Origin: Escherichia phage fp01
Sequence record: NC_048731.1
Direction: 5' to 3' (one strand)
DNA length: 64,000 bases
This document shows positions 5,297 through 56,103 of this stretch, piece after piece (position 1 is the stretch's first letter; each line of letters starts with the position of its first letter). Below the pieces are notes generated by a model. The model was not told where the DNA came from. It was given only the letters and a program-made list of their open reading frames with translations, and did not search any database. A program made the position numbers and the translations under genes.

Positions 5297-5308
5297 ATGA
5301 TGTATAAT
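5280..5308 (+). promoter_or_regulatory. sigma70 promoter (T5 early type)
   Basis: 'TTGGCA' + 17 nt + 'TATAAT', followed by 'ATATACATAAATTTGAGAGAG', which resembles the downstream region of the classical T5 PN25 promoter as I recall it. Confidence 0.45.
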
Positions 5309-11228: not shown

Positions 11229-11260
11229 CCCCAGAGGGATATCCCTCTGGGGTTTTCTTT
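11229..11260. terminator. bidirectional rho-independent terminator between converging modules
   Basis: Hairpin 'CCCCAGAGGG-ATAT-CCCTCTGGGG' flanked by A-run upstream and 'TTTTCTTTTATT' downstream. Confidence 0.65.
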
Positions 11261-36559: not shown

Positions 36560-38317
36560 TTAGGTAAGGCGTTGAACTGTTACTCTTAATCTAGGTAGGA
36601 AAACCGCACTACCTAAACTTACGTGCATAACTACCCCTAACTCTACATTTCCATTTCCTAGATTTTTAACTGTATATGTGAAACTATTTCTACTTAGTGC
36701 ATTATTAGGTGTGTATCTAAATGCAGATGTAGTATGAAATGGTACTAAGTAACCTACAGGTAATGTTAAAATCTGGTGGAATATTGCATCTCCATTACTA
36801 TAGCTATAAGCCCTTCTTCCCTGCACCTGAAATACACCGTTATTCCATGTATTAGCCGGAACACCAGCACAATTAAGATTACCAGATATAACTTCAGTAG
36901 TAAGAATAACGGTAGCATTACCTCCTGGAATTCCTAGTCCAATAGTAGATAGAGCCACGTATCTGTCTCCAGTTCCGGGGTAGTAAGGGGTAATATCATC
37001 CCCCATGTAAGAACTACCAACATTTCCACTAAAAAGTCTCAGAGGAACTGAAGAAGGCCCCCAAACAACACCATGTTCATTACCAATAGTATTATTACTT
37101 GAGTTTACGTACCATTGCTTACCCGCTCCGAATTTGTAAATACTAATTTGAGACTTAGCCCCTCCATAGTCTACGGGAGACCATAAACTTCCATTACTAG
37201 AGCCTACAAGTTCGCACCTTGCAGTGGTATCTCCAAAGGCTCCAGTGTACGCTGCGTTATTTCCGACGTATTCCATATCTGGCCTATAGCCTAAGTTACC
37301 AAAAGCATTCTGGTTAATAAACTTATATCCAGTATTCGGTAAACTAACCCCTTTTATAGTAAAATTAGAGGGGGAGATAAGAATATCTGAACCAGTAAAA
37401 GGATTACCAGAGATACCCATATTACCATTAGAATACCTCAGATTAAGTACATACCAAATAACCTTAGTAGGAGTTATGTTATACCAATCCTGTAATATTG
37501 TAGCATTACCAGATTGATTAGCTAAATTAGTTGTAGAACCCCTACAAACAAATCTGTTACCTCCATCGTGGTACATAGTATTTACGCTACCAGGAAGACC
37601 TTGTCTTACCCCGCCATACCCACGTATGTTAGAGCTACAAACATAGAACCAATCGTGTCCTCTGTGTGCTGATCCTAAAGGAGACATCCATCCCGGATCC
37701 CAGTAATATGGATTATTACCATCTATAGGTACTGTACTACTATTAGTAGGAAAACCCAGCTGTGCAAAAGCTTCTGCAACAGTAATACCTACTGGAGCTC
37801 CTGCACCTGGCCTAACTATACCATGATAAGTACTATGTAGGGTGGTCCCACCAGTACCATTTCTAGAGATAGATTCTTCATGCCCTATAGATGGGTTATA
37901 GTTATATGTGCCAGATGCCAGGCTATTACCAAATGCAAATCCACTAGTTTGGGAAACGCTAGCAAAAGATCTAAAAGGATCTGCTTGAGTGGCAACTATA
38001 GTTTGACCTACTTTACTCTGAGTACCATTAAGAAAAGCCCTATGAGTACCATTAATCTCAATAGCAGTTAGTATAACTCTACCTGGGTCATTGGATTTAA
38101 TATTTATTATGTCAGAGGGCATCTGACATACAAAAAACCCATTTCCAGCATTTCCTAACCCGGCCTCATAAGTACCATCAACTAGGACAAATGGCATATC
38201 ACTATGAAAAATACTATTGGCATTTGGACTATAGTGACGATTAATGTCACCCCCAGATTCAGTATTTAAAGATAGTACGGTCTTACCATCGCTATATTTT
38301 CCAGCGAAAAAACCCAT
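36560..38317 (-). CDS. receptor-binding tail protein (T5 pb5/Oad-like)
   Basis: 585 aa Gly/Asn/Ser-rich beta-type protein at the end of the late module, divergently paired with an Llp-like lipoprotein gene as in T5; 'AGGAG' RBS. Confidence 0.55.
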
Positions 38318-38402: not shown

Positions 38403-38669
38403 ATGAAAAAGTTTGTGATTGCACTAGTTGCCGCAGTTATGTTATCTGGTTGTGCACCTGCTCCCAAACCATTTTGTACTGGATTTGTAAAATCTTTTGG
38501 TGGTGCGGGAGAAGAACATTACGGTCTCAAGATTCAAAAAGTTCGTATTAAGGGAGATCGCTTCCCAGTAGTACAGCTCCGTACTAAGTTTGGGTGGTGG
38601 GATCTCAGTCAGTTTGACCTTAAATATGGTGATTGTAAATTTAAACTAGAGCAATCTAACTACCTGTAA
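38403..38669 (+). CDS. llp: superinfection-exclusion lipoprotein (Llp-like)
   Basis: Signal peptide with lipobox 'LSGC'; small size; divergent from the receptor-binding protein gene. Confidence 0.6.
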   Translation: MKKFVIALVAAVMLSGCAPAPKPFCTGFVKSFGGAGEEHYGLKIQKVRIKGDRFPVVQLRTKFGWWDLSQFDLKYGDCKFKLEQSNYL

Positions 38670-38844
38670 TTAGTATAAAGCAAAAAGACATCCAAGTAAA
38701 CTAAATTTTTTATTTTTTGGATGGTATATTGGCAGAAACCACTATGCAAGAAAAGTAGAAGTCCTTCTAGGAAGTCACGAGTATGGTTGGTTATGCACAA
38801 ACTATAAAATATTCCAAATACAACATTTACGGGGCACGAAAGTT

Positions 38845-38973
38845 ATGTCAAATAAAAGAAAGAGCAGACGCGGAGAAGTGTATGATAGCTGGATAAATAG
38901 TTTTGGGTTCGGAACTATCTTATTCTTTATTTTCGTAGGTTTTTGGTTAGCAGCTATGGCGGGGTGGATTTAA
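38845..38973 (+). CDS. small membrane protein (42 aa)
   Basis: 'MSNKRKSRRGEVYDSWINSFGFGTILFFIFVGFWLAAMAGWI'; stop overlaps next start (TAATG). Confidence 0.3.
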   Translation: MSNKRKSRRGEVYDSWINSFGFGTILFFIFVGFWLAAMAGWI

Positions 38974-39077
38974 TGGGAGTAGTAATTATTGTTTTACTAA
39001 TTATTGTAATTCTAGGGCAATGTGTCTTGGATAACCACTTAGCTCGTATTGAACGTAAGCTGCGGGAATATAAATAA
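38973..39077 (+). CDS. small membrane protein (34 aa)
   Basis: 'MGVVIIVLLIIVILGQCVLDNHLARIERKLREYK'; start/stop overlaps with neighbours. Confidence 0.3.
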   Translation: MGVVIIVLLIIVILGQCVLDNHLARIERKLREYK

Positions 39078-39322
39078 TGTTTAGTATTATAATTGCTTTT
39101 ATTATCGGGATACTCGCGGGAGTTTTCGGGACGACTGCGGCAATCAACAAGCATCGTAAATATATTGCGGGAGTGACGCGGGAGATTGCGGAAAGGGAGC
39201 GGAAGTTTGACGAGAAACGTGCGGAGTTTGAGCGAGAGTGGTCGGATGGATCTCGGGCGTCGCGGAAGAGATTCCGTGAGTTCAGGCCAGAACACAGGTT
39301 TGATGACCCTTCTATGCGCTAA
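39077..39322 (+). CDS. small membrane protein with charged C-terminal tail (81 aa)
   Basis: N-terminal TM helix 'MFSIIIAFIIGILAGVFG', Arg/Glu-rich tail. Confidence 0.4.
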   Translation: MFSIIIAFIIGILAGVFGTTAAINKHRKYIAGVTREIAERERKFDEKRAEFEREWSDGSRASRKRFREFRPEHRFDDPSMR

Positions 39323-39436
39323 TTTGACTTTTGCCAAATTTCATAAGATTACACATGGAGGTGTGCCCAGTGGGTTGGGGGAGAATACTTAGTCTGCTAA
39401 CCGCCACCCCCGTTACTATTACCTTGCTAACTGTTT

Positions 39437-39471
39437 CATCCTGTAACCATTTTAATTACAGGATGAAACTA
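39437..39471. terminator. strong hairpin (13-bp arms) downstream of dmp-like gene
   Basis: 'TTTCATCCTGTAA-CCATTTTAA-TTACAGGATGAAA' perfect inverted repeat. Confidence 0.45.
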
Positions 39472-39486
39472 TGTCAACTTTAATTA

Positions 39487-40221
39487 TTACGCAACTTTTA
39501 ATTTCTCAATATATTGTTGCGGGCTGCAACTATATTCTGCGCGTTCTTCCTCGGTCATACTTTCCCAACATAATTTCAAACGATCGGCTAGGAACTGATA
39601 ATCATTATCATCCTCGAGGGATTCATCAATAAAGGTTCCGCCTATCAATGCCACGCCGATTGATAGAATATCATTAACGGCTTGCGCATCTAGCGTTTTA
39701 AATCCATATGACGCAGCCGCTGATAATACACCTTTATGATCATCAATCATTGTAAAATCAGCGTTCGGATATAGCTGTTTAAATAATTCAAAGTAATAAC
39801 TTTTGTATACTGCGTCCTTGCTGTGGTATATCTCGCTAACCTTATCAGCCTCAAAATATTTATGCAGTGTATCGCGGGAAAATACACGGATATTACTATC
39901 ACCACGCCCGCGCAATCCTTGTTTGCGCAAATAATAATAATCCGACTTGCTCATCAGCCGAGCGGTGCAAATAATGTTTAAAGTATTTGAGTCATTCATA
40001 CATTGGCGCATATATTCCACCAAAGGTAATAAGGTGTCTTGCATTATTAAATCATGTTTACACGCTTCATTTTTATACTTATTTAAATTTAAATTCCCGT
40101 CGCTATCAAAGCAAGGCGCTACACGATGGAAAGAATTAATGATAGTGCCGTCCAGATCCCAAATCATGACGCGGGAAATATGCGGGAAATTACGGGAAAT
40201 ATTCATAATAGCTTTATTCAT
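39487..40221 (-). CDS. dmp: HAD-superfamily 5'-deoxyribonucleotidase (T5 Dmp-like)
   Basis: HAD motif I 'IWDLDGTI'; 244 aa; sits downstream of the A1-like gene in the GC-richer island. Confidence 0.6.
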   Translation of the reverse strand: MNKAIMNISRNFPHISRVMIWDLDGTIINSFHRVAPCFDSDGNLNLNKYKNEACKHDLIMQDTLLPLVEYMRQCMNDSNTLNIICTARLMSKSDYYYLRKQGLRGRGDSNIRVFSRDTLHKYFEADKVSEIYHSKDAVYKSYYFELFKQLYPNADFTMIDDHKGVLSAAASYGFKTLDAQAVNDILSIGVALIGGTFIDESLEDDNDYQFLADRLKLCWESMTEEERAEYSCSPQQYIEKLKVA

Positions 40222-40300
40222 TTGTTACGTTCTCCATTAAAGGGATGTAGTTTATCCAGCACTGCCCGCTATTTATAAGCGGGCAATAATAAATCAACTA

Positions 40301-40693
40301 TCAAAGACCATAAGCCAAAGCATCGGCGATAAAACTAATATCTTCGCCGGATATATGGGAACGAATACCCGCGCAGATATACACCTTTGCGCTTGATAGC
40401 TGATCATCAAAGCAAGCCGGACAAGGCGCGACAACTGCAAACGCAAGGCCAGCTTTCACGGCGTCAATGATAATCGTTTCTTGTTTCACCGTATCAACAT
40501 AAACGCCTGCGGCCTTGATGTAACTACTTGCGCGGCCTTGCGTATAGGCGAAAGTCGTGATCTGTAGCGCCTCATTAAATTCGATTAAATCATCAACAAC
40601 GTGACCGGCCTCAACGTGATACCGCTCACCATTAGAATAAACCAGAACGATTGAGGATTGAGCGCGATCGAATGGAATATTTTGCTTTTTCAT
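40301..40693 (-). CDS. hypothetical protein with HxE...PCxxC motif
   Basis: 'YHVEAGH' and 'APCPACF'; start 'MKKQNIPF' with leader 'TTAAATTAATTGGAGTTT'. Confidence 0.5.
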   Translation of the reverse strand: MKKQNIPFDRAQSSIVLVYSNGERYHVEAGHVVDDLIEFNEALQITTFAYTQGRASSYIKAAGVYVDTVKQETIIIDAVKAGLAFAVVAPCPACFDDQLSSAKVYICAGIRSHISGEDISFIADALAYGL

Positions 40694-40759
40694 ATTTATA
40701 AACTCCAATTAATTTAATAAGGGGCATAAGCTGGAAGTATTTCCAGCTTATAAATTTAA

Positions 40760-42424
40760 TTATGCGAAAAATTTGCCGTTTTTAAAGTCAATCAAAGTGC
40801 GTTGCCCGTTGGCGTATGTAATTAAATGCGTTTGCGTCCAGCTTGACGCGCCAACGTTGTAACCCATATCCAGACTACCAGCTACGCCAGCGGTATAAAC
40901 GCCGCCATAAATGCTAGCGGTGTGAGTGTGTCCGGTGTTTAACTTGCCCAATTTCTTAAACTGCTTAGGATTGCCACGGCTGCCGTTTATGCCGTTATGA
41001 CCGTGTACACCACACTCAATGCCTGCAATTTTGAATGATTGATCAGTCGTTAGGAAAATCGCGTTAAACTCGCAACCTGCGACGCTACGCAGCGCATAAT
41101 CTAGCACGTTGAAAGTATCGTCATGATTACCGATTGCCGCGTAAATTGCAGCATTAAGGCGGTGATATAGTTCCGCATTGGCTGGGTCGTCTTTAATGTT
41201 AGCATTACGATCATCAAGCCAACGAGATAGCGCCAAATCGTGATTCGATTCAACAATGATCGTTTGACTAAAATCACGCTCCATCGATTCCAGCACGCGC
41301 CCGGTATCGATAAGATCATCAATAACCTTATCCCGTCCGGCTGCATACTGTTTCGCTAGAAATACACCGGAAGCGCGGTTATGATGATTGCGCGATGTAA
41401 AATCATGCACGTCATGGATAAACTGATATTTAGGCTTGAGAATATCAAGCAAACTATTGTCGCCAGCCCATGACGCTGCGGCGCACTCCTCATCTAATTT
41501 TTCGGCGTGAATGTCACCATACTGTAAGCCTAAAACATGCCCCGATGTTTCATAGCATCCGGCGGGAGTAGCGCAAACATTCAGATCATAAAACACCCCG
41601 CTTTCATCCATTGTTTCAAGCTGGCGAACAAAAAATTCACCGTCCTCATCGAACTCGACAATCAGCGCACCAAAGTTATGAAGTGCTTCCGCTTTCTGTC
41701 CTGCTTTCTGCTGAATGTAGTTTTTGAGTGTTGCCGTTCCGGTTGAATACATGCGGCGCACCACTTCACCTTTTAAAGCTGGGACGCTTTCGGCGGTGAT
41801 TTTAGCGTGACCAATTGCCAGACCCTCGATATTTAAAGCCGTTGCAGTTTCTGCAAATCCAGAAAGCGGATAATCTGCGGTTGGCAAAACATTAATTTCA
41901 GCCATGAAAGCAAAACGGCGGTTATTTAAAAACACGTTTTTGCTGCAAATATACTTATCAAAAGCGGAATCATATTTGATTCCGTCAGCACCTTCCCCAT
42001 TTTGGAATCCGTTTTTATTATAAATATACTTAGAAACAAGCAAATCAGCGCCGATAAATTTGGCATATTGTTCAAGCGAGGACAAAAAGTTTTTATGCGG
42101 GAAAGTATTATTCTGAATCGATGTAATAATAAAGCGTTTGCCTTGTTTTACTTCCCACTGTTCCACGGTACTAGAAACAATTCCAGCCGCTTCGGGGCGC
42201 TCATCGTTTTTAATGGCTTTTACCGCTTTCGCCGCTTTCGGTTTAGCTGGTTTATTTGCTTCCAGCCAGTCGCAGATAGCGGTTGAATGTTTTGCAGTAT
42301 CGTAAACCGCTTTTGATATATCGTCGCAGACCTCCAATTTAGTAGCGCGCAGACGTTTACCATAGAAATTAAAGTCAGCGGCTAGTTTCAGGATAGCGGT
42401 TTGTTTTTCTGCGGAAAAAATCAT
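40760..42424 (-). CDS. A1: pre-early A1-like protein with metallophosphatase (Mre11-like) motifs
   Basis: ~554 aa from 'MIFSAEK'; 'GDIHAE', 'ESNHD', 'GHNGINGSRG', 'TGHTHTA' phosphoesterase motifs; size and position match T5 A1 as recalled. Confidence 0.65.
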   Translation of the reverse strand: MIFSAEKQTAILKLAADFNFYGKRLRATKLEVCDDISKAVYDTAKHSTAICDWLEANKPAKPKAAKAVKAIKNDERPEAAGIVSSTVEQWEVKQGKRFIITSIQNNTFPHKNFLSSLEQYAKFIGADLLVSKYIYNKNGFQNGEGADGIKYDSAFDKYICSKNVFLNNRRFAFMAEINVLPTADYPLSGFAETATALNIEGLAIGHAKITAESVPALKGEVVRRMYSTGTATLKNYIQQKAGQKAEALHNFGALIVEFDEDGEFFVRQLETMDESGVFYDLNVCATPAGCYETSGHVLGLQYGDIHAEKLDEECAAASWAGDNSLLDILKPKYQFIHDVHDFTSRNHHNRASGVFLAKQYAAGRDKVIDDLIDTGRVLESMERDFSQTIIVESNHDLALSRWLDDRNANIKDDPANAELYHRLNAAIYAAIGNHDDTFNVLDYALRSVAGCEFNAIFLTTDQSFKIAGIECGVHGHNGINGSRGNPKQFKKLGKLNTGHTHTASIYGGVYTAGVAGSLDMGYNVGASSWTQTHLITYANGQRTLIDFKNGKFFA

Positions 42425-42518
42425 AGTAATAAACTCCATTAAAGGGATAAAAAACGTTTGTTATTGGCAATATTGCCAGATATAACGCCTTGAATAATAG
42501 GCGTTATAATTTGCAACA

Positions 42519-42716
42519 TTAATTTAAAGGCATAAGGCTAGAACTAACACCACAAACAACGGCGGCAATAAAACAAATCAGACCTAAACGCTTCGCTAAC
42601 TTAGATTTGCGTTTAAAATAATACGAATCTAAGTCATTTTGAAAATATGCGAACAATAACGAGGCCGCCATAATAAATAGTCCTAGAATCAGCGATTCAG
42701 TAGGGTAAAAGATCAT
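42519..42716 (-). CDS. small two-TM membrane protein (65 aa)
   Basis: 'MIFYPTESLILGLFIMAASLLFAYF...LICFIAAVVCGV'; leader 'CCCTTTAACTGGAG'. Confidence 0.4.
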   Translation of the reverse strand: MIFYPTESLILGLFIMAASLLFAYFQNDLDSYYFKRKSKLAKRLGLICFIAAVVCGVSSSLMPLN

Positions 42717-42745
42717 TTTAATAACTCCAGTTAAAGGGAAATTAT

Positions 42746-42765
42746 AGTGGGGAATAATCCCCACT
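42746..42765. promoter_or_regulatory. perfect inverted repeat between A2-like and small membrane genes
   Basis: 'AGTGGGGA-ATAA-TCCCCACT'. Confidence 0.35.
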
Positions 42766-42773
42766 AGTTAAAT

Positions 42774-43181
42774 TTATTCACCTGCGGCCTGTTTTACTTC
42801 ATCGGCAACGCCTAACAACTGCGCCACGGCGTCCAGCGTTTCCAGTTTCGCGCTTTCAAGGCTTGCCAGATCATCGGCGTCTTTGATAATGCCGGAATCA
42901 ATAGCGTGTTTTGCAATTACTCGCACATAATGAGCCTTGCGGATTGAACTGCCGCCGCCAACTTTGCGCGGCTTATCGCTTTTTTGATAGGCTTTCGCGC
43001 TGGTCAATTTTGAGCGAACGGATACGGGAGAAGTCGCGCCCACTGCCTTTGCAATCTCTTTCAGGCCGTCGCTATTTGCAAATTCTAAACCGTTTTCGTT
43101 GATTAACTGCTGATACAGGGTAACAGCTTTTTGGGTGTTGTCTTCATTCCAAGTGAATTTTGCGGTTTTTGCGTTAGTCAT
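42774..43181 (-). CDS. hypothetical pre-early protein (A2-sized, possibly DNA-binding)
   Basis: 135 aa, Lys/Ala-rich; upstream of the A1-like gene in the same operon; leader 'TTAAATTAATTGGAGTTT'. Identity with T5 A2 is a guess from order and size. Confidence 0.3.
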   Translation of the reverse strand: MTNAKTAKFTWNEDNTQKAVTLYQQLINENGLEFANSDGLKEIAKAVGATSPVSVRSKLTSAKAYQKSDKPRKVGGGSSIRKAHYVRVIAKHAIDSGIIKDADDLASLESAKLETLDAVAQLLGVADEVKQAAGE

Positions 43182-43279
43182 GGTAAAAACTCCAATTAAT
43201 TTAATTTAAGGGATTAGATTAACTAATGTTAATCGTTATAACCCTCCTTATTCTAGGAGGGTATAAAGTTAACACTAAT

Positions 43280-43531
43280 TTATAATACAGCTTCCCATTT
43301 TTCGTTGCGTTGAACAACCTTTACAACATCGCCTGATTTAACGCGAACGTTATAAACGGTTTTGCCGTTGTTACTGCGTTCTGTTTCAGCGTATACCGCG
43401 TCGATTGTATCGAACGGCATAAGCGCCGCGCCTTTAATACGTTCGGCCTTTCCGGTTAATTCATCCGTTTTAGTAACGAAAGGAATAAAAACGGATTGAC
43501 CAATTTTAGGCGTGGTAATAACGTTTTGCAT
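43280..43531 (-). CDS. hypothetical protein (83 aa)
   Basis: ORF with 'GGAG' RBS. Confidence 0.45.
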   Translation of the reverse strand: MQNVITTPKIGQSVFIPFVTKTDELTGKAERIKGAALMPFDTIDAVYAETERSNNGKTVYNVRVKSGDVVKVVQRNEKWEAVL

Positions 43532-43762
43532 AATATAGACTCCAGTTTATTCAGTGGATTGTTCCGCATTACCTGCTAGAAAATAACAGGTAATAAGAAA
43601 AAATCCGCTCGCCATTATAAAATCAAATTAAAGAACTCCACGCGGGCCGCTATATCCCAGTTAGGGGGCGAGACACATTATGGTAAGTGCCGACCGTCAA
43701 ATTGTATCAAGTTATCGCTCTTTTCGAACTGGGTATATCTTAAAAGCCCATCGGCTAGGTTG

Positions 43763-43963
43763 TCAAACTATTTTTTGCAGTTTTTTATGATTTTCCTTCA
43801 GGTCAATCATAATATTACGCCAGATCATTTCTAAACCTTGCTGGCGCCCTTTCTTGTACTGCGTGAAGCGGTATTTTACCGATCTTTGCGCTACTGTCAA
43901 TAATTTTTTAGTTTCGCTATCCAGTGCCTTGCTAGGTTTACCAGTGATCAATAGAGTTTGCAT
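43763..43963 (-). CDS. hypothetical basic protein (66 aa)
   Basis: ORF; coupled to an upstream 52-aa ORF by TAATG overlap. Confidence 0.35.
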   Translation of the reverse strand: MQTLLITGKPSKALDSETKKLLTVAQRSVKYRFTQYKKGRQQGLEMIWRNIMIDLKENHKKLQKIV

Positions 43964-44121
43964 TATTTGAGATCCTCCAAAGCGTATAAACCTTTGCCAT
44001 CATTGCAGATTATTACTGCTTCTGAATAGGTGGCATGATATTCGTTTGCCGCTTTTACCCATTGCTCGATCTTTTCGATCGTGTCGTGGGTAGCTGGATG
44101 ATCGTTATATATTGTTTGCAT
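43963..44121 (-). CDS. hypothetical protein (52 aa)
   Basis: ORF 'MQTIYNDHPATHDTIEKIEQWVKAANEYH...' translationally coupled to the next gene. Confidence 0.25.
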   Translation of the reverse strand: MQTIYNDHPATHDTIEKIEQWVKAANEYHATYSEAVIICNDGKGLYALEDLK

Positions 44122-44583
44122 ATCGTCGATTCCTTATAATGAATAAGTTTACCGCCGATAGGCTTTTAAGATATACCCAATTTTTAAAGAGCGCGGCGGT
44201 AAACTCCCCGCCGTGTAGTTCGTCATTGCCGCCCTACGAGATAAATAATAACAAACAACGAAAAAGGCGCAACCTTATATTTGTAAAGAAATGTAAAGAC
44301 AAAATCCACCGGACACCGTGCGGCGATCTGGGCGCGACGGCCTAAAATTAAAAGAAACGGGCGCGCGAATACCACAAAACACAGCAGATAAGCAAGTAAT
44401 TTTTTCATTTATATTTGCTTTGCCCTACTTGACAAAATCTAAAAAGCTCGTGGCGACGATAAACGACGTGGCCCCTTATGATTGGATGGCTAAAAACTTT
44501 ACTGCGTTCTGGGGCGTTTCAGGCCGCTTATTTTCGACTTAACAAATCATTAACAAACGCAAAATTGAAAAATAGTTGGAAAA

Positions 44584-44609
44584 GGTCTTGACTTTTAAAA
44601 ATCAAGACC
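44584..44609 (-). terminator. hairpin downstream of HNH gene
   Basis: 'GGTCTTGA-(10 nt)-TCAAGACC'. Confidence 0.4.
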
Positions 44610-44633
44610 AAATGACTTAATTTATTAAATTAA

Positions 44634-45152
44634 TTAATTGACAATTCCAAATTCAGCTTTTTTAGTTTCAAGCCATAATAATAACTCTTGTAAATCATAA
44701 CCTGACTTACTAACACGCTTGTTAGTAATAGGATTCTTAATTTGAGCAGTCAAATAGTCACGCCCGTAACTATCACGGGGGCGAACTTTATTAACGTAAA
44801 TGTTTTTAGGGATACCATTAGCACGCTTACAGTTTTCATACTCACTAGGAGTACGATTATAATTATTCTGCGAACTATCAACCGCGCGAAGATTCCAGAT
44901 GTTATTATTACGAGTGTTACGATCGATATGATCAATCATTAGCTCGCTATCTATACCGCCATTCATTATACAAAAGATAATTCTATGTACTTTTAACTGT
45001 CCCATGCCTAATAGTTCAACTTGCCAATAATTACCATTTAAACCACCTGCGACGGCGTGATCTTCCCGCCAACGTAAAAATGATAACGCTGTTTCATCAT
45101 AATAAAAGTAACTATTAAAAAGATCATAATCTATATCTTTATATTTACCCAT
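44634..45152 (-). CDS. HNH homing endonuclease
   Basis: 'IDHIDRNTRNNNIWNLRAV' HNH motif; gene is markedly AT-richer than its GC-richer surroundings. Confidence 0.65.
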   Translation of the reverse strand: MGKYKDIDYDLFNSYFYYDETALSFLRWREDHAVAGGLNGNYWQVELLGMGQLKVHRIIFCIMNGGIDSELMIDHIDRNTRNNNIWNLRAVDSSQNNYNRTPSEYENCKRANGIPKNIYVNKVRPRDSYGRDYLTAQIKNPITNKRVSKSGYDLQELLLWLETKKAEFGIVN

Positions 45153-45717
45153 TGTTATAGTTTCCTTATGTTATTAATTTAATCTCTATTATATTATATC
45201 AAAACAATTAGCAGACTAGCTAATGAGTTTTTCAGGTTTAATTAGCAGACTCATAATCACTCTAAAAACCTATTAGCCAACTAACTATATTTTATTATAT
45301 AATAACTGTATAAATTAGTTAGTGAGAACCACTATCATTTAAGTTACCCACAGCCTTATACATTTTGTAAAATAATTTGACACAATAGGCGGCGATATGA
45401 GGGCTTTTACACAGACTTATCCACAGGTTATTCCACTGTATAAATATACAGGGTAAAAAGGTAGTGTTAACAACTGCAATCAATTTTAAGCGGCCTAAAA
45501 CGCTTTCTAACGAGCTAAACGCTGCGGGGTAGTATTAAAGTAAAGCCTTCACCCGTCGGCCTGGTGGCTTCGCCGTGTCTTGCTCTTTACTACACCGCTG
45601 CGCGGTTAGCATAAAACTAGGTGTTAGGCAAGGAAAATAAAAAAGTAAAATAATCTTTGCCTATGCTAGAAAATTACCCTTATCATTCACTCACCGATTA
45701 ACGAGGGAGGCCAACAA

Positions 45718-46704
45718 ATGCGGCTATATAAACCAGATAACGCAACCGTCTTAAAAGGTGCGCTGCGTAACCTGCTGGACGGTAGCAGAACAACCAGCAT
45801 TAAACATTTTGTTTTCAATATTGAAACTATTCATCAAAACTTTTTTGATGATTATGATGCTTACAATATGAATAGTTTTCTACCGTTATATAAGCAAGGG
45901 GCAACGCTTGTTTTATATAATCAGGATTATCAATTACTTACTAGTAGGGGGCCGGATACTGATTTCATAGTCGTAAAAGGCAACACAGTAAAAGCCTATG
46001 ATACTGGGGCGGGCTTAGAAGTTTTTTCAATAGAAAACTATGAAGCCAATGATAATGATCTTTATGACGTAGAAAATTTTCTTGATTCATTTTGGCGTTA
46101 TTTATCAGTTGGCTGGAATCGGTCGGATTCTGATGGGTATCGTTTTGCGGCTATAATGGCCTTTGATGATAACGGTAATTTTTTGCTACCGTCGGAGTTA
46201 TATAATCGGGTATATGAAGGCGATATTGTTGACGCCGGATTTTCTTTCGAAAGGGAAGAAAGTATTGACAGTATAGAAAAACATGCTGTAAATTCTAACA
46301 CTAAAAGCGTTCACACTCAAACTACTGAAAACAAAGGAAAAAATGCCATGACCAAGATCGCTAACATCGTTGCCGCCAATAAGTCTGCCGTTGTAAACGC
46401 TGCAAAACTGGAAGCGGGTAAAATTGCACTGACTCAAATTACGAAAGTAGCGGCTAAAAAAGCACCGTTCATGATCAAAGGCTATATTGATACGCCGATT
46501 GGTCGTGTAGTGATCGCTAACCTGCTGAGTGTAGCGGTTGACCAGTACGCCCCGAGTAACCAGAAAGCGAAAGCGGTAGCAGGGGCGGCTATGGAAGCGG
46601 CGATGTTGGAAATGGTGCAAAGTTTTAACATCGCTGAGATGATTGATGAAATGGTAAAAGGTATCGATATTTCTACTTTCACCACTAACACCGAAAGCGA
46701 GTAA
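45718..46704 (+). CDS. hypothetical protein, acidic N-terminal half and Ala/Lys-rich C-terminal half
   Basis: 328 aa; RBS 'GAGGGAGG'; first gene of a tightly packed plus-strand operon. Confidence 0.6.
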   Translation: MRLYKPDNATVLKGALRNLLDGSRTTSIKHFVFNIETIHQNFFDDYDAYNMNSFLPLYKQGATLVLYNQDYQLLTSRGPDTDFIVVKGNTVKAYDTGAGLEVFSIENYEANDNDLYDVENFLDSFWRYLSVGWNRSDSDGYRFAAIMAFDDNGNFLLPSELYNRVYEGDIVDAGFSFEREESIDSIEKHAVNSNTKSVHTQTTENKGKNAMTKIANIVAANKSAVVNAAKLEAGKIALTQITKVAAKKAPFMIKGYIDTPIGRVVIANLLSVAVDQYAPSNQKAKAVAGAAMEAAMLEMVQSFNIAEMIDEMVKGIDISTFTTNTESE

Positions 46705-46768
46705 TAATAACTAGCGGGGTAACAATCCCCGCTTTACTATTCCCTTGTTAATTAATAGGAGGCTAATT

Positions 46769-47086
46769 ATGCAGCTTAACAAAAAAATGCTAGAACAATT
46801 GCGGGGTAGAATCCAGCGCGATGACTACCCTCACATTAATTATTCTTCGGAAGTAGTAGACACTGCCGATTCATGGAAAAAAGCAGGTTACCCCTATGTA
46901 TGGCAACATGCAGAAAGCGCAAACGGATTCCATGCCTTTCGTGATTTAGGTCATGGAAAACTTTGCGTTTTTAAAGGTGAGTTATTAATAGGAGTATCAG
47001 AATCGGAAGTAATCACGGATGAGGTTGTATTCTTAGACAATGACCAATATGAAACAGGCAATCAGTTTTATTTTCCCGCTAATTAA
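46769..47086 (+). CDS. hypothetical protein (105 aa)
   Basis: Start 'MQLNKKM' preceded by 'TTAATTAATAGGAGGCTAATT'. Confidence 0.55.
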   Translation: MQLNKKMLEQLRGRIQRDDYPHINYSSEVVDTADSWKKAGYPYVWQHAESANGFHAFRDLGHGKLCVFKGELLIGVSESEVITDEVVFLDNDQYETGNQFYFPAN

Positions 47087-47100
47087 TAGGAGGCTAATTA

Positions 47101-47595
47101 ATGGCTGAAGAAAAATATGGCTTCTCACTGGGAGAAGTGAGCACGGCAAAACATGATATGATCATTTTAGTCGATTGTCATACTGGCTATTGCGGGGAAG
47201 GGAATACCGAGGAATATTTTGTTCCTGCTGGTACGGATCTAGACGCTTTCGCTCAGGAAATGGCTATTGATAATGCTTCTCGTTTTGGTAGCGATGGCTA
47301 TGAAGACGAGGAAACTGGCGAATGGTATGAAAATGAAAACGTATATGCGAGCCTTTATCATTATCAATTAAGTAAATCCGGCACATATGTAAACGGCGGC
47401 GATCCTATTAATTCCGTCATGAAATTAATTATTAAACACGGTGGCGTCGAGATAATTGATAACAAAGCGGTAATATATGCAAACCGATTAAAACAGCTTG
47501 TTTATATCCCTGATAGTACCCGATGGGATGAATACGCCGTTTTGCATGACGAATTGAAACGATGTTTCAATGTTGAAGCCTTACAAGTAGTCTAA
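47101..47595 (+). CDS. hypothetical acidic protein (164 aa)
   Basis: Preceded by the same 'TTAATTAATAGGAGGCTAATTA' cassette; Asp/Glu/Tyr-rich. Confidence 0.6.
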   Translation: MAEEKYGFSLGEVSTAKHDMIILVDCHTGYCGEGNTEEYFVPAGTDLDAFAQEMAIDNASRFGSDGYEDEETGEWYENENVYASLYHYQLSKSGTYVNGGDPINSVMKLIIKHGGVEIIDNKAVIYANRLKQLVYIPDSTRWDEYAVLHDELKRCFNVEALQVV

Positions 47596-47701
47596 TGTAA
47601 AGTTTTGTAAAGGTCGCCTTTTATGGTGGCCTTTTTTGCTATAATGCCTTTACACCGTTTGAGGACGGTTGAAAATTTTCCCAAAAATTTGGAGGCTTAA
47701 A

Positions 47702-47932
47702 ATGGTTGCTTATTCTTCTTCTGACGCTCTTTTCACTGGGAAAGGCTGGGTATCTAATCGCTGGATTATTCAAGAAATGGTGCAAGAATACGGCATTGCT
47801 AAAACTTACACTACCATTCAGGCGCTTTATGATAATGATCAAATCGATCAGCAAACGGCGGGCTTTTTGCTGGATACCCTGAAAGCGGAACACTGTACCA
47901 AAAAACAAGCGGCAAAAATTGTTTTAATGTAA
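47702..47932 (+). CDS. hypothetical protein (76 aa)
   Basis: ATG at 47702 with 'GGAGG' RBS; preceded by a 'TATAAT' element at 47639-47644. Confidence 0.45.
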   Translation: MVAYSSSDALFTGKGWVSNRWIIQEMVQEYGIAKTYTTIQALYDNDQIDQQTAGFLLDTLKAEHCTKKQAAKIVLM

Positions 47933-47981
47933 TTAATAACGGGGCGTTACTTTCGCCCCACTAACTAGGGGAGTAGTACAA

Positions 47982-48164
47982 ATGGTTATTTTTCGAGCTG
48001 TTCTAGCAGGTATCTTGGGCGCTATTTTGACCCTTTTCGCCACCGCGTATGGTATTCAGGATTCCTATTGCGGTTTGGTAAATACAAAACCAATGGTTAC
48101 TATTGGCGCTGGCATTGCTGTATTTTCTTATCTGCTAGGCTGCATGACTAGTAAAGGAGAATAA
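47982..48164 (+). CDS. small membrane protein (60 aa, two TM)
   Basis: Hydrophobic 'VIFRAVLAGILGAILTLFATAYG' and 'TIGAGIAVFSYLLGC'. Confidence 0.45.
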   Translation: MVIFRAVLAGILGAILTLFATAYGIQDSYCGLVNTKPMVTIGAGIAVFSYLLGCMTSKGE

Positions 48165-48166
48165 AA

Positions 48167-48379
48167 ATGATCCGCAACGTTTCTCTTGCACGTTCGAAAG
48201 GCTTTAAGCTGGTGGATGCTAACACGTTCGAGCGTCTTGATTGTAAAATCGAATATGTAGCACGTAACAAAAATGCCTTTCGTGTTACCGAGAAAAAATT
48301 TGACAAGCGCGGCAACGTGATCGCTGAAACGGTTAAACACTTTGCCACCTTTTACGCTGCGTTTCGTGGGGTGTTATAA
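48167..48379 (+). CDS. hypothetical basic protein (70 aa)
   Basis: 'AAGGAG' RBS; coupled to neighbours. Confidence 0.45.
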   Translation: MIRNVSLARSKGFKLVDANTFERLDCKIEYVARNKNAFRVTEKKFDKRGNVIAETVKHFATFYAAFRGVL

Positions 48380-48380
48380 A

Positions 48381-48725
48381 ATGGTTATTTATGAAGGCAA
48401 TCGTTTTGTTGCTAATTGCCGCCCGGCATTGTTAGCAAACTATTTAAATCAGCTTTCGCCAGCTTATAAGGGCGTTATTAATATTTATGAGGGCAAGGCA
48501 CATTATAAAATTAATGCGGTCGTTGCCCGTGAACTAGCATTTCAATTTTTGACCTTTGCATCTTGTGACGTTCAAGTTATGGGTGAAGCATTAATTGCGG
48601 AAAATGAAGAGGATTTTATTAATATTTTCCGCAAGGTATGCACCGAGCGCCTGATAATGAAAGGCGCGTATATTCAATCCACTGCGGATAGTATTGAAAC
48701 AGCGTTTCGAAAGGTGGCACAATGA
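48381..48725 (+). CDS. hypothetical protein (114 aa)
   Basis: ATG at 48381 directly after upstream stop. Confidence 0.5.
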   Translation: MVIYEGNRFVANCRPALLANYLNQLSPAYKGVINIYEGKAHYKINAVVARELAFQFLTFASCDVQVMGEALIAENEEDFINIFRKVCTERLIMKGAYIQSTADSIETAFRKVAQ

Positions 48726-48880
48726 AAAAGTTTTTAATAGCTGGCATGTTTCCTTTGTTGCCTTATGTAATTTGCTGGGCTTTATATGCTCATGGTGCTA
48801 GTGTTCCCGGTGTGGCTGCATTTGGTGTATCAGCGGGCTTTCTAGCCGGACTACTAGCAAGCGTATATTTACGCAAGTAA
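48722..48880 (+). CDS. small membrane protein (52 aa)
   Basis: 'MKKFLIAGMFPLLPYVICWALYAHGASVPGVAAFGVSAGFLAGLLASVYLRK'; ATGA overlap with previous gene. Confidence 0.4.
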   Translation: MKKFLIAGMFPLLPYVICWALYAHGASVPGVAAFGVSAGFLAGLLASVYLRK

Positions 48881-48899
48881 TTAACAACGGAGCGTTATT

Positions 48900-49094
48900 A
48901 TGAGCAATAAAATTATTGTAACCAAAACCAGCACAACGGTTGATGTTTTTTACGTGCCCGATACGCCGGAAAACCGACAAGCGGTCGAGCGTGGGGAATA
49001 TGATAAAGTGATTTATGATCACGATGGTTATTATCAGTATTTGGTGGATTCATATGGGGAGGAGGAAAAGATCACGCACCGACTACCGGACTAA
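48900..49094 (+). CDS. hypothetical acidic protein (64 aa)
   Basis: Last ORF before the repeat landscape. Confidence 0.45.
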   Translation: MSNKIIVTKTSTTVDVFYVPDTPENRQAVERGEYDKVIYDHDGYYQYLVDSYGEEEKITHRLPD

Positions 49095-49133
49095 TAATCA
49101 CGGGGCGCAACTATCAGGAAGTGCCCCCAATTC

Positions 49134-49158
49134 TCAAATGAGAATGATTCTCATTTGA
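49134..49158. repeat. perfect 25-nt palindrome
   Basis: 'TCAAATGAGAAT-G-ATTCTCATTTGA'; motif 'AAATGAGAATGATTCT' recurs at ~49650 and ~49700. Confidence 0.85.
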
Positions 49159-49360
49159 CCGCGCCCGCGATGGTTAGCCTGCTAATGGTTAGGGTGTTAC
49201 GTGTCGCCTTGTGTGATCGTTAGCGAGCTAACTAATTTTCAAGCCTCCTCCAATTTTGCCCTTGTTTTAGTATCCCCACCAAAATTAAACGCGTTAGAAT
49301 GCGTTTGAGGGCGTTTTAGCGGTATATTAGAATTATTCACTGCGTAGGAATACTGTATAT

Positions 49361-49460
49361 TTATCCAGTAGGATAAGCTGTGGATAAGTCTGTTGATAAC
49401 GCTTCAAAACGGCTAGGATTTTGTCAAGTCAAATCGTGCTGTTGATAAGTCTGGGGATAA
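49361..49460. promoter_or_regulatory. cluster of DnaA-box-like 9-mers
   Basis: 'TGTGGATAA' (perfect complement of TTATCCACA) plus 'TGTTGATAA' x2, 'TGGGGATAA', 'TTATCCAGT' within ~100 bp. Confidence 0.6.
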
Positions 49461-49485
49461 CTTAAATAATAGTGTTTCTCACTTC

Positions 49486-49740
49486 CGTTCTTAAATGCGA
49501 ATCATTATCATTTGCATTCCACTTCCTGAATAAGAATCATTCCACTATCTAAACGATAATCATTCCACTTCCTGAATAATAATCATTCCACTATCTAAAT
49601 AAGAATCATTCCACTATCTAAACGATAATCATTCCACTTTTTAAATGAGATTGATTCTCATTCCACTTTCTAAATGCGAATTATTATCATTCGCATTCCG
49701 CTTTTTAAATGAGAATGATTCTTATTATCATTCGTATTTA
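49486..49740. repeat. tandem iteron-like ~23-bp repeats
   Basis: About 8 head-to-tail units of 'CATTCCACT(A/T)(T/C)CT(A/G)AA(T/C)(A/G)A(T/G)AAT' with variants. Confidence 0.8.
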
Positions 49741-49762
49741 GCGCAGAGCAATTGCTCTGCGC
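49741..49762. repeat. perfect 22-nt palindrome followed by T-run
   Basis: 'GCGCAGAGCA-ATT-GCTCTGCGC' then 'TTTTGTG'; could act as a terminator or protein site. Confidence 0.8.
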
Positions 49763-49765
49763 TTT

Positions 49766-50369
49766 TGTGCAAAACCGACATTGCTCCACGGGTGTTACGT
49801 GCGGGCGTATGTGCAAATCCGACAGGATTTTTGGTAGTGTGCAAATCCGACCCGAAAAATTTTTATAGTGTGCGAATCCGACAATGAATTTTTCCAAAAA
49901 CTCCAGCAATCCGATGCTGCGCATCAATCCTGTGGAATTAACTAGAATATGTGCAAATCCGACATGAGTTTATTTGTGCGAATCCGACAAGATTTTTGTG
50001 ACTTCGATTGGAGGGTGTGTGATTGTGTGGGTTTGGGGAGAAGTTGAGAGAGCGAGGGAAAATTAGGGGAGAAGCTAGAGAGGCGCATGTTTGGTGCGGG
50101 GGCACCCGATTTGCGGGGATTTTGGGGAAGAGTTGAGAAGATTTGGGTTAATTTGAGATTAGTGGAGATAAAGTAAAATTTTATTAGCTAAATGGGGCAA
50201 AATAGCTTGACAAGTGAAAATTCTTGTGGCTCTAAAAACTCAGGCAATCATGGGCCTTCGGCCCGAAATAATGCTGCCATTTTCAAGAGATTATGTGTCC
50301 ATGAAAACTTAGGCAATTGTGCAAATCCGACCATAAATTTCTAGAAACACAATGTGCAAATCCGACAGT
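49766..50369 (+). repeat. eight dispersed direct copies of a 14-nt motif
   Basis: 'GTGC(A/G)AA(A/T)CCGAC(A/C)' at ~49767, 49811, 49840, 49871, 49950, 49977, 50320, 50353, all on the same strand. Confidence 0.8.
50000..50200 (+). repeat. purine-rich G-tract region with 3 copies of 'GGGGAGAAG(T/C)TGAGAG'-like unit
   Basis: Strong G+A skew on plus strand; G-runs 'GGG','GGGG','GGGGG' spaced by short linkers. Confidence 0.7.
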
Positions 50370-50914
50370 AAAATCCAGAAATGTGTTTTCAAAAAATGTT
50401 GTCTAGAAATAACCGCCCTCCCCATAACCGCCCTGTATTAAACCGCCTAGTATATGTTCCTAGAAACTTAGGAGAACCGCCCACTAGAAGTGTGATATCT
50501 CGTGAGTATTTCGTGAGAACTCTGGAGTTTCTAGGAAAGTGTTGTGCCATCCTAGCAGATGAGCGGCAACAGGTGTATCATCTTGAATGTAAATTATGTG
50601 GTCAAAAGTTTTACTTTTATTTTAAATATAAGATCCCCCAGGGTTCTCATATAGAGCTTTGCCCCCGCCAGAAGGTCTCGTGATGTTTCTAGCAATTTAT
50701 ATTAAATTACTTATTAACTTGTCCTGTCGCTCCGTATCCTCCGCTACAAGTTAGTAATTTTAAATTACTGAACCACCACACCTTCTGTGTGGCAACTCTA
50801 AATGGTTAATTCTATTAACTCATAGAGTTATGATAACATACATTTAGCTATCTGTCAACGAGAGTTTGTATTTGAGTCTCGGTACAGGTATTGTGCACCG
50901 AGACTTGCAGGATC

Positions 50915-56089: not shown

Positions 56090-56103
56090 TAATTTATGAA
56101 CTT

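Follow-up and report, generated by a model that had tools for sequence, protein, structure and literature searches.

The terminal repeat of a T5-like phage as a separate compositional compartment with CCC-box-led pre-early genes

Do the pre-early genes of a T5-like phage differ from the rest of its genome because they must be translated by an intact host, before phage tRNAs and factors are available? The question is raised by positions 39487–43531 of a 64,000-nucleotide stretch of Escherichia phage fp01 (NC_048731.1; the whole stretch is referred to here as the window), a block of six genes, all on the minus strand, that includes dmp, A1 and A2. A reading made from the letters alone (the sequence-only reading) had described this block as a pre-early operon with stereotyped translation leaders and a composition of its own, consistent with tuning to host translation. 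We found that the whole terminal repeat, and not only the block, differs from the rest of the window in oligonucleotide signature and codon usage, and that its intergenic leaders share a short pyrimidine element, the CCC box. On balance, we favour selection for expression on naive host machinery as the force that keeps the repeat apart.

T5 two-step injection has been a subject of study for 60 years. By homology, the window is a Tequintavirus (T5-like) genome whose terminal repeat includes 39487–43531, the dmp-A1-A2 pre-early operon. A megablast search with 39000–45000 returned 510 phage records, the best being Tequintavirus at 89–92% identity (Salmonella phages NR01 and SPC35, and T5-like coliphages), and the annotation of relatives gave the order terminase, receptor-binding protein (36560–38317), receptor-blocking lipoprotein (38403–38669) and then the terminal repeat. 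As in a T5-type repeat, one strand carries dmp, A1 and A2 in the T5 order and a second operon diverges from them, and homology to annotated terminal repeats gave ends that could be mapped, at 39364 and 50232. From this position of the repeat, the record is a collapsed, permuted assembly with a single repeat copy. Besides the six-gene block, the repeat contains two small open reading frames (ORFs), an HNH gene, the plus-strand operon (45718–48725) and a noncoding region matching the T5 injection-stop region. This layout agrees with the two inversely oriented pre-early transcription units described in the literature (PMC10644984).

We first consider base composition. The claim that A1 has roughly 50% G+C, against roughly 40% in the tail genes, was right in direction but overstated: A1 has 44.4% G+C and the late genes a mean of 38.5% (34–43%), a gap of ~6 points rather than 10. 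The richest 1-kb window of the block reached 45.4%. The richest kilobase of the window (12001–13000, 48.7%) lies outside the pre-early block, in a 709-amino-acid (aa) late gene (11260–13389), where the peak is due to G+C at second codon positions (GC2, 0.45) and therefore reflects amino-acid composition. With plain G+C raised by only 2–7 points and its peak in a late gene, G+C alone is a poor descriptor of the region. Between the block and its flanking modules there is a difference in G+C at third codon positions (GC3) and in codon statistics. GC3 in the core block had a mean of 0.40 and a median of 0.399 (Mann-Whitney p = 7e-4 against the rest), and the median was 0.376 in the whole repeat versus 0.289 elsewhere (Mann-Whitney p = 1e-5) and 0.345 versus 0.289 in the plus-strand operon (p = 0.0035). 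We observed no significant difference between the repeat and the rest for first (GC1) or second codon positions, indicating that the shift is synonymous. The block is thus compositionally distinct, as had been proposed, but the true domain is the whole terminal repeat, 39364–50232.

The difference is larger at the level of oligonucleotides. The repeat had a CpG relative abundance of 1.38, with 1.52 for its minus-strand operon and 1.24 for its plus-strand operon, compared with 0.63 in the late and 0.76–0.78 in the early region. GpC was similarly raised (1.56 versus 1.06–1.17), AG, GA and AC were lowered (~0.8 versus 0.9–1.2), and CC/GG was not enriched. GCGC and CGCG were 8-fold commoner in the repeat than elsewhere, CGCGC was 24-fold commoner and AGAG was 8-fold rarer; the enriched k-mers were symmetric, and no strand-biased motif was found. 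Chi sites numbered one in the repeat (48208) and two in the whole window. Karlin delta* distances (x1000) put the repeat at 215 from the late region, 199 from the early region and 141 from E. coli; by comparison, the late and early regions were 65 apart and the two pre-early operons 73 apart. Tetranucleotide usage in the repeat showed no correlation with that of the remainder of the phage (r = -0.04 and -0.06), compared with r = 0.49 for E. coli, showing that two unrelated oligonucleotide signatures are maintained in one phage genome.

The same division was seen in T5 and in relatives from other genera of the Demerecviridae. Tetranucleotide usage of the window's repeat correlated with that of the T5 repeat (r = 0.95), of the Klebsiella phage VAC51 repeat (0.86), and of the pre-early regions of Proteus phage RP7 (0.45) and Vibrio phage JSF10 (0.38), and the non-repeat compartments of the four genera, from four hosts, correlated with one another (r = 0.53–0.86). 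These non-repeat compartments are CpG-poor and show little correlation with E. coli (r = -0.15 to 0.30). A sliding CpG profile of the window rose at 38.3–39.0 kb and fell at 49.5–50.3 kb, which are the ends of the repeat, and the same CpG island was found in T5, VAC51 and RP7, and in weaker form in JSF10. Just left of the repeat start, an 81-aa ORF on the plus strand (39077–39322) has 50% G+C, GC3 of 0.54, a CpG observed/expected (o/e) ratio of 1.67 and a codon adaptation index (CAI) of 0.21, and contains many GCGGGAG-like repeats; its composition indicates that the CpG-rich domain starts ~300–450 bp before the mapped repeat end.

We compared codon usage with that of 69 E. coli K-12 genes (39 ordinary genes and 30 ribosomal-protein or elongation-factor genes), the only host reference used, including for the Proteus and Vibrio phages; p-values are uncorrected, and the main ones are far below any reasonable threshold. 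The codon shift of the repeat genes correlated with the difference between phage usage and that of average E. coli genes (r = 0.74), for G/C-ending (0.65) and A/T-ending codons (0.64) alike; with the highly expressed, ribosomal-protein set as the reference, r was only 0.38. AGA made up 4% of arginine codons in the repeat, compared with 22% in early and 35% in late genes; CGC stood at 43% versus 10% (early) and 9% (late), and GGC at 40% versus 16% and 11%. Overall, ATA, CTA, GGA, ACA and CCA fell and CGC, GGC, GCG, CCG and ACC rose in the repeat genes. Against the G+C trend, AAA and GAA rose, and AGG, CTC, GAG and AAG fell.

The codons that fell include host-rare ones with a cognate T5 tRNA. 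We found no tRNA genes within the window and hence used the T5 set as a proxy, with anticodons UCU (Arg), UAG, UGU, UGA, UGG, UGC, UAC, UUU, UUC and UUG and, as annotated, also UCC and an AUA-reading Ile2-CAU. Host-rare codons with a T5 tRNA (AGA, ATA, CTA, GGA, ACA, TCA) made up 12.8% in the repeat versus 22.7% elsewhere (p = 1.7e-11; per gene, p = 2e-4). By contrast, host-rare codons without a phage tRNA were equally frequent (33.2% versus 33.8%, p = 0.78). The contrast for phage-tRNA codons recurred in T5 (p = 0.006), RP7 (p = 1e-17), JSF10 (p = 0.008) and VAC51 (p = 2e-8). T5 tRNA genes are reportedly expressed only from ~5 min (PMC3326045), and the halving of the codons that they serve is what the idea of host-tuned translation predicts; its repetition in T5 and three other genera supports that idea. 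For CAI, weights from the 30 highly expressed K-12 genes led to the same conclusions as the Sharp-Li table. CAI was raised only modestly in the pre-early genes (p = 0.02–0.07), and the major capsid gene has the top value of the window. The proposal of tuning to host translation is supported for codon usage and incomplete for the DNA signature.

The leaders described in the sequence-only reading were mostly real but not always correctly delimited. The strings assigned to dmp, A1 and the 65-aa gene occur only in this operon, but the form given for them, CCCTTTAA(T/C)TGGAG, carries an extra base relative to the dmp and A1 leaders: CCCTTTAATGGAG lies 5' of dmp (40232–40244) and A1 (42434–42446), and CCCTTTAACTGGAG lies 5' of the 65-aa gene (42725–42738). 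Together these make three matches, with 0.01 expected, and they contain the sole three copies of CCCTTTAA in the window. The leader said to be shared by the 130-aa gene and A2 was confirmed as TTAAATTAATTGGAGTTT, identical at 40700–40717 and 43187–43204. For the plus-strand operon, TAATTAATAGGAGGCTAATTA is present twice (46749 and 47080), but only two or three of the seven genes use this leader, and the 15-mer that had been quoted for the operon occurs once only.

We derived the shared element from all window leaders side by side together with 65 related loci from IMG/VR. The comparison across 5' leaders that had been suggested alongside the original proposal yielded a pre-early-specific cassette of CCC box and GGAG. 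The CCC box is a nearly G-free pyrimidine element with the consensus WWTCCCTTWA, in which CCC is invariant; it is followed, after 6–17 nt, by a short (T)GGAG(T)T Shine-Dalgarno sequence, nearly always a bare GGAG, with a further 7–11 nt to ATG. As a composite motif (CCC box, spacer, GGAG, spacer, ATG), with a first-order Markov expectation of 0–0.2 inside and 0.5–1.1 outside, it was found six times in the 10.9 kb of the repeat and once in the 53 kb outside. Counts inside and outside the pre-early region were six and zero in T5, five and zero in RP7 (A1 42% identical) and seven and one in VAC51 (A1 74% identical). A CCC no more than 26 nt from the Shine-Dalgarno sequence was present in 7 of 11 truly intergenic leaders in the repeat, compared with 1 of 26 elsewhere (Fisher p = 2e-4). 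In JSF10 (A1 33%), CCCT boxes are recognisable 5' of A1, dmp and a neighbour, with degenerate Shine-Dalgarno sequences, and the motif was not found in contigs with A1-like genes outside the Demerecviridae (L045–L070). An alignment of 27 A1 leaders had an invariant GGAG and a TCCCTT box conserved in at least 90% of rows, and the linker just 5' of that box came in two unrelated versions. The CCC box is thus conserved and specific to its temporal class. Since both divergent operons carry it in one and the same orientation to transcription, its role is likely to be at the RNA level or coupled to transcription; it may recruit ribosomes or serve as a handle for a class-wide shut-off. Three ATTTCCCG units in tandem (ATTTCCCGTAATTTCCCGCATATTTCCCGCG), similar to the CCC box, lie in the 5' coding end of dmp (40170–40200, minus strand).

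Two explanations of the CCC box were considered and rejected. It is not part of a promoter, since the T5 annotation has none between dmp and A2 and a promoter scan turned up no consistent candidate. As a stand-alone structure paired with the Shine-Dalgarno sequence, it would make only a 3-bp UCC/GGA contact across loops of 7–17 nt, and the predicted folds leave the leader open.

A GC-rich hairpin also follows the upstream stop codon in each intergenic region of the block, with fold z-scores of -2.2 to -4.1. The hairpins differ in sequence from each other and are kept in relatives through compensatory changes: between A2 and the 65-aa gene, two pairs are changed on both sides among 17 sequences, and between the 65-aa gene and A1, relative L043 keeps the position of the hairpin with a different stem sequence. 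We rejected the hairpins as intrinsic terminators, as no U-runs follow them on the coding strand and a terminator scan of the minus strand reports none; the scan's matches at 40726–40751 and 42745–42766 are on the plus strand. A scan of 38500–50500 against Rfam 15 gave a single match, at chance level (E = 0.27). Predicted folds leave most of the RNA between the CCC box and AUG unpaired, and initiation regions show somewhat less structure in the six core genes than in the others (ensemble dG -2.8 versus -4.4 kcal/mol, p = 0.011, n = 6). Features of the repeat are listed in Table 1.

Table 1. Features mapped in the terminal repeat, in order of position in the window.
Feature	Position	Strand	Basis and remarks
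Terminal repeat, first-step-transfer (pre-early) DNA	39364..50232	.	blastn of annotated repeat ends of SPC35 and T5
dmp (deoxynucleoside-5'-monophosphatase), 244 aa	39487..40221	-	megablast matches, NR01 and T5 annotation; GC3 0.38, CpG o/e 1.55
dmp leader ATCCCTTTAATGGAGAACGTAACAA (CCC box and GGAG)	40222..40246	-	CCC box in 20/20 distinct leader variants of relatives
Hairpin between 130-aa gene and dmp	40262..40286	-	predicted fold, z = -4.1
130-aa pre-early gene	40301..40693	-	T5.002 homologue, phrog_4576
130-aa gene leader CCCCTTATTAAATTAATTGGAGTTTATAAAT	40694..40724	-	leader comparison
Hairpin between A1 and 130-aa gene, 11 bp, no U-run after it	40726..40751	-	hairpin scan, predicted fold
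A1 (DNA transfer / host shut-off protein), 554 aa	40760..42424	-	tblastn 90-98% to Tequintavirus A1; GC3 0.416
A1 leader ATCCCTTTAATGGAGTTTATTACT	42425..42448	-	27-sequence alignment
Two hairpins between 65-aa gene and A1 (42482-42507, 42465-42478)	42465..42507	-	predicted fold
65-aa membrane protein gene	42519..42716	-	T5.005 homologue, phrog_4820
65-aa gene leader TTCCCTTTAACTGGAGTTATTAAA	42717..42740	-	unchanged ahead of 38-44% identical allele
Hairpin between A2 and 65-aa gene, 9 bp	42745..42766	-	pairing in 98.6% of cells (17 sequences)
A2 (DNA-binding protein), 135 aa	42774..43181	-	T5 annotation; GC3 0.485, CAI 0.52
A2 leader ATCCCTTAAATTAAATTAATTGGAGTTTTTACC	43182..43214	-	CCC box in 20/20 leader variants
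Hairpin between 83-aa gene and A2	43241..43262	-	predicted fold, z = -3.3
83-aa pre-early gene	43280..43531	-	T5.007 homologue, DUF7177
83-aa gene leader ATCCACTGAATAAACTGGAGTC and preceding hairpin (43569-43593)	43532..43593	-	ATCCCC here in most relatives
HNH homing-endonuclease gene	44634..45152	-	GC3 0.27 (phage-like), CpG o/e 1.57 (repeat-like)
Divergent pre-early operon: 328, 105, 164, 76, 60, 70, 114 aa	45718..48725	+	codon and dinucleotide signature as in minus-strand operon
105-aa gene leader TTCCCTTGTTAATTAATAGGAGGCTAATT	46740..46768	+	leader comparison
164-aa gene leader TTCCCGCTAATTAATAGGAGGCTAATTA	47073..47100	+	leader comparison
T5.012 homologue leader TTCCCAAAAATTTGGAGGCTTAAA	47678..47701	+	leader comparison
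T5.012 homologue gene	47702..47932	+	behind TTCCCAAAAATTTGGAGGCTTAAA leader

Taken with these observations, selection for expression on naive host machinery would keep the whole repeat, 39364–50232, as a separate compartment of cassette-led cistrons, and we infer that translation was the selective agent. The repeat, 8–9% of the genome, would be the first DNA to enter and would be expressed with the host intact, before any phage tRNA; its genes avoid the host-rare codons that T5-like phage tRNAs serve and that are in free use elsewhere in the phage, and use the host-typical CGC, GGC, GCG, CCG and ACC instead. Each pre-early cistron would have a cassette made up of a GC-rich hairpin, the CCC box, an A/U-rich, G-free spacer of 6–17 nt, (U)GGAG(U), 7–11 nt and AUG. 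Such a cassette may offer host 30S subunits a landing site that is insulated and has little structure, with the CCC box as a possible RNA-level signal common to the whole temporal class.

Several points weigh against this explanation. The late structural genes have the highest CAI against the ribosomal-protein and elongation-factor set, and TAT and CAA move away from host preference in the repeat genes. The host codon reference is small, genes were called heuristically, and T5 supplied the tRNA set, as the tRNA region of this phage lies outside the window. All codons in the phage-tRNA set end in A and none in the control set do, such that the comparison is partly confounded with the third base, although the rise of AAA, GAA and CAA in the repeat genes runs counter to that confound. 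In addition, the CpG/GpC excess extends further: CpG across the junction of codon positions 3 and 1 was 1.33 versus 0.72, overshooting E. coli (1.06); noncoding repeat DNA had a CpG value of 1.13 versus 0.63–0.82; and the low-GC3 HNH gene reached 1.57. The CpG excess at codon junctions, in noncoding DNA and in the HNH gene indicates that translation cannot be the sole force.

These last results bring in the strongest rival explanation, that selection at the DNA level is the main cause: naked first-step DNA would face restriction, nucleases and silencers, recognisable or foreign-looking words would be purged, the signature would drift towards that of the host, and the codon pattern would be mostly a by-product. 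We consider this unlikely as the main cause, though several observations are in its favour. Palindromes of 6 bp containing G or C occurred at 0.46 of expectation in the repeat, compared with 0.65–0.84 elsewhere in the window, and 34 of the 64 6-bp palindromes were absent from the repeat, with a Poisson expectation of 8.3. The avoidance was also seen in the pre-early regions of T5, VAC51 and RP7 (L005 1–10219, L073 1–9700 and L071 13900–23400), and GAATTC, AAGCTT, ATGCAT, GCATGC, CCGCGG and CGGCCG (EcoRI, HindIII, NsiI, SphI, SacII and EagI) are missing from the repeats of three phages. The window's repeat lacks GAATTC and has one CCWGG against ~9 expected. Restriction reaches T5-like phages only via sites in the first-step-transfer region (PMC10644984). 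Palindrome avoidance in the repeat thus indicates that DNA-level selection acts on the same segment, and the CpG excess outside codons, as well as tetranucleotides that track E. coli rather than the rest of the phage, are consistent with it. However, palindrome avoidance predicts neither the CpG and GpC excess nor the loss of AGA and TCT, and mimicry would not be expected to set rare codons that have a phage tRNA apart from those that lack one. We know of no defence system in these hosts that reads CpG content or signature, which also counts against DNA-level selection as the main cause. The two forces are compatible, and selection on the DNA does not exclude tuning to host translation.

In T4, RegB cuts GGAG in early Shine-Dalgarno sites with the consensus GGAGRAYARAA, and RegB and RegA control the early mRNAs. 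By analogy, the CCC-box/GGAG leader of the T5-like phages might be a post-transcriptional operator that a phage or host protein binds or cuts, aiding A1-dependent shut-off. We regard this as doubtful. The classical literature has at least part of the shut-off occur in transcription, a scan of the pre-early proteins gave no RNA-binding or RNase domain, and the leaders do not match the RegB context. On the other hand, the motif is class-specific, strand-specific and conserved far past the needs of a Shine-Dalgarno sequence, which is itself nearly always a bare GGAG. In the T5.003 leader of T5, the order is CCCC, hairpin, AGGAG, and a hairpin between the box and the Shine-Dalgarno sequence would hold both close in space. 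Pre-early shut-off is known to require A1 (PMC10644984), also in keeping with an operator. A broader version, in which the two compartments of the Demerecviridae have been separate from a time before the genera diverged, is more speculative still. The CCC box would then recruit pre-early mRNAs collectively to ribosomes, and later expose them to collective silencing or cutting; in that case it would be the missing cis-target of A1-dependent shut-off.

A repeat-specific bias of mutation or repair, for example GC-biased correction of heteroduplexes between recombining repeat copies, would require no selection for expression. The island matches the repeat boundaries within a few hundred bases, includes noncoding DNA and is found in every relative examined, all in keeping with such a bias. 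However, VAC51 has the signature and the codon shift without a rise in GC3, AAA and GAA rise while AGG, CTC, GAG and AAG fall, CC/GG is not enriched, and G+C is up by only ~2 points. Given the absence of a GC3 rise in VAC51 and the fall of several G/C-ending codons, we consider GC-biased repair highly unlikely. Less likely again is the notion that the leaders are alike through recent duplication or as recombination linkers between gene cassettes, with the composition reflecting foreign origin: the composition is indeed atypical, and genes have been swapped between conserved leaders (alleles of the 65-aa gene at 38–44% identity; T5.003 present or absent among relatives), but the CCC box and codon shift persist in genera with A1 only 33–74% identical, hairpin sequences differ between intergenic regions, such that the cassettes are not copies of one another, and dmp, A1 and A2 are core genes of a family in which genes and signature are common to four genera, which also led us to reject a horizontally acquired island, as region and signature are in all four genera examined and not patchy.

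Several further sequence features were observed in and around the repeat. A 40-nt inverted repeat (88% complementary; 43716–43755 and 44154–44193) flanks two small ORFs (43763–44121), and the T5 promoter P-H22 is annotated in the region equivalent to 43716–44193. Imperfect inverted repeats (75 nt at 76% and 39 nt at 87%; 45321–45451 and 49353–49483) flank the plus-strand pre-early operon and contain the DnaA-box sequence TTATCCACA at 45417 (+) and 49379 (-). The sequence TATAAT-N6-ATARATT occurs nine times in the window, with 0.16 expected, at 5303, 5404, 38366 and 45298 (+) and at 56091, 56596, 58381, 59201 and 63745 (-). In most cases a GAGAGG-type Shine-Dalgarno sequence follows, and the arrangement looks like a second stereotyped leader type, a promoter with its initial transcribed sequence; the only copy in the repeat, at 45298, is probably the promoter of the plus-strand operon. 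A run of 41 N (masked bases) lies within a late gene at 15112–15152.

The findings have several uses. One experimental handle is the CCC box, as a short, conserved, pre-early-specific leader element that can be mutated. A second handle is the avoidance of AGA, ATA, CTA, GGA, ACA and TCA, which predicts that pre-early translation is limited by host tRNAs. Two signatures in one genome bear on signature-based host prediction and on the detection of 'foreign' DNA. For the engineering of T5-like phages, any gene placed in the repeat should be written in its dialect and kept free of palindromes. In the literature searched, we found no description of the compositional compartment (the Davison 2020 preprint is silent on composition), of the CCC-box leader, or of such a codon analysis of T5 pre-early genes.

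Among known systems, the leaders can be compared with the 'epsilon' translational enhancer of T7 gene 10, UUAACUUUA. Both place an A/U-rich element just 5' of the Shine-Dalgarno sequence in a phage leader, but the invariant part here is CCC, which is not in epsilon. The nine-base UUAACUUUA was not found upstream of the Shine-Dalgarno sequence in the leaders, three of which share only CUUUAA. UCCCUU would be complementary to the 450 region of 16S rRNA, next to the epsilon target; we dismissed this pairing, as chance alone predicts a match of 6 nt within 1.5 kb, and the pairing model for epsilon was itself reportedly refuted. RegB sites of T4 are similar in that a temporal class of phage mRNAs has a stereotyped, GGAG-centred leader, but here the conserved extra element, the CCC box, lies upstream and not downstream. 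RAYARAA was not found after GGAG in the window leaders, which have UUUAUUA, AACGUAA and UUAUUAA, and a scan of pre-early proteins, which did not include the rest of the genome, found no RegB-like endoribonuclease.

The closest system is the repeat of T5 and other Tequintavirus phages, with which the window shares dmp, T5.002, A1, T5.005, A2 and T5.007, followed by the divergent operon and the noncoding injection-stop region. It differs in lacking a homologue of T5.003 (T5 1371–1649; equivalent to 40694–40759 in the window) and in having two additional plus-strand genes (105 and 164 aa) that bear the AGGAGG leader. Restriction-site avoidance in T5 first-step-transfer DNA was reported by Davison and Brunel in 1979, as cited in PMC10644984, and the window agrees in having no EcoRI site in its repeat and a depletion of 6-bp palindromes in general. 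The present figures extend the avoidance to all 64 palindromes and to four genera, and it leaves the CpG excess unexplained. Codon usage is known to differ between phage temporal classes, partly via tRNA supply (Mioduser et al. 2017, PMC5683454; phage Sf14, PMC12482277), and as in those systems the class made before phage tRNAs avoids the codons that those tRNAs read. In the window, however, the split is between pre-early genes and everything else rather than between early and late genes, and it follows a physical DNA segment with a di- and tetranucleotide signature that covers noncoding DNA.

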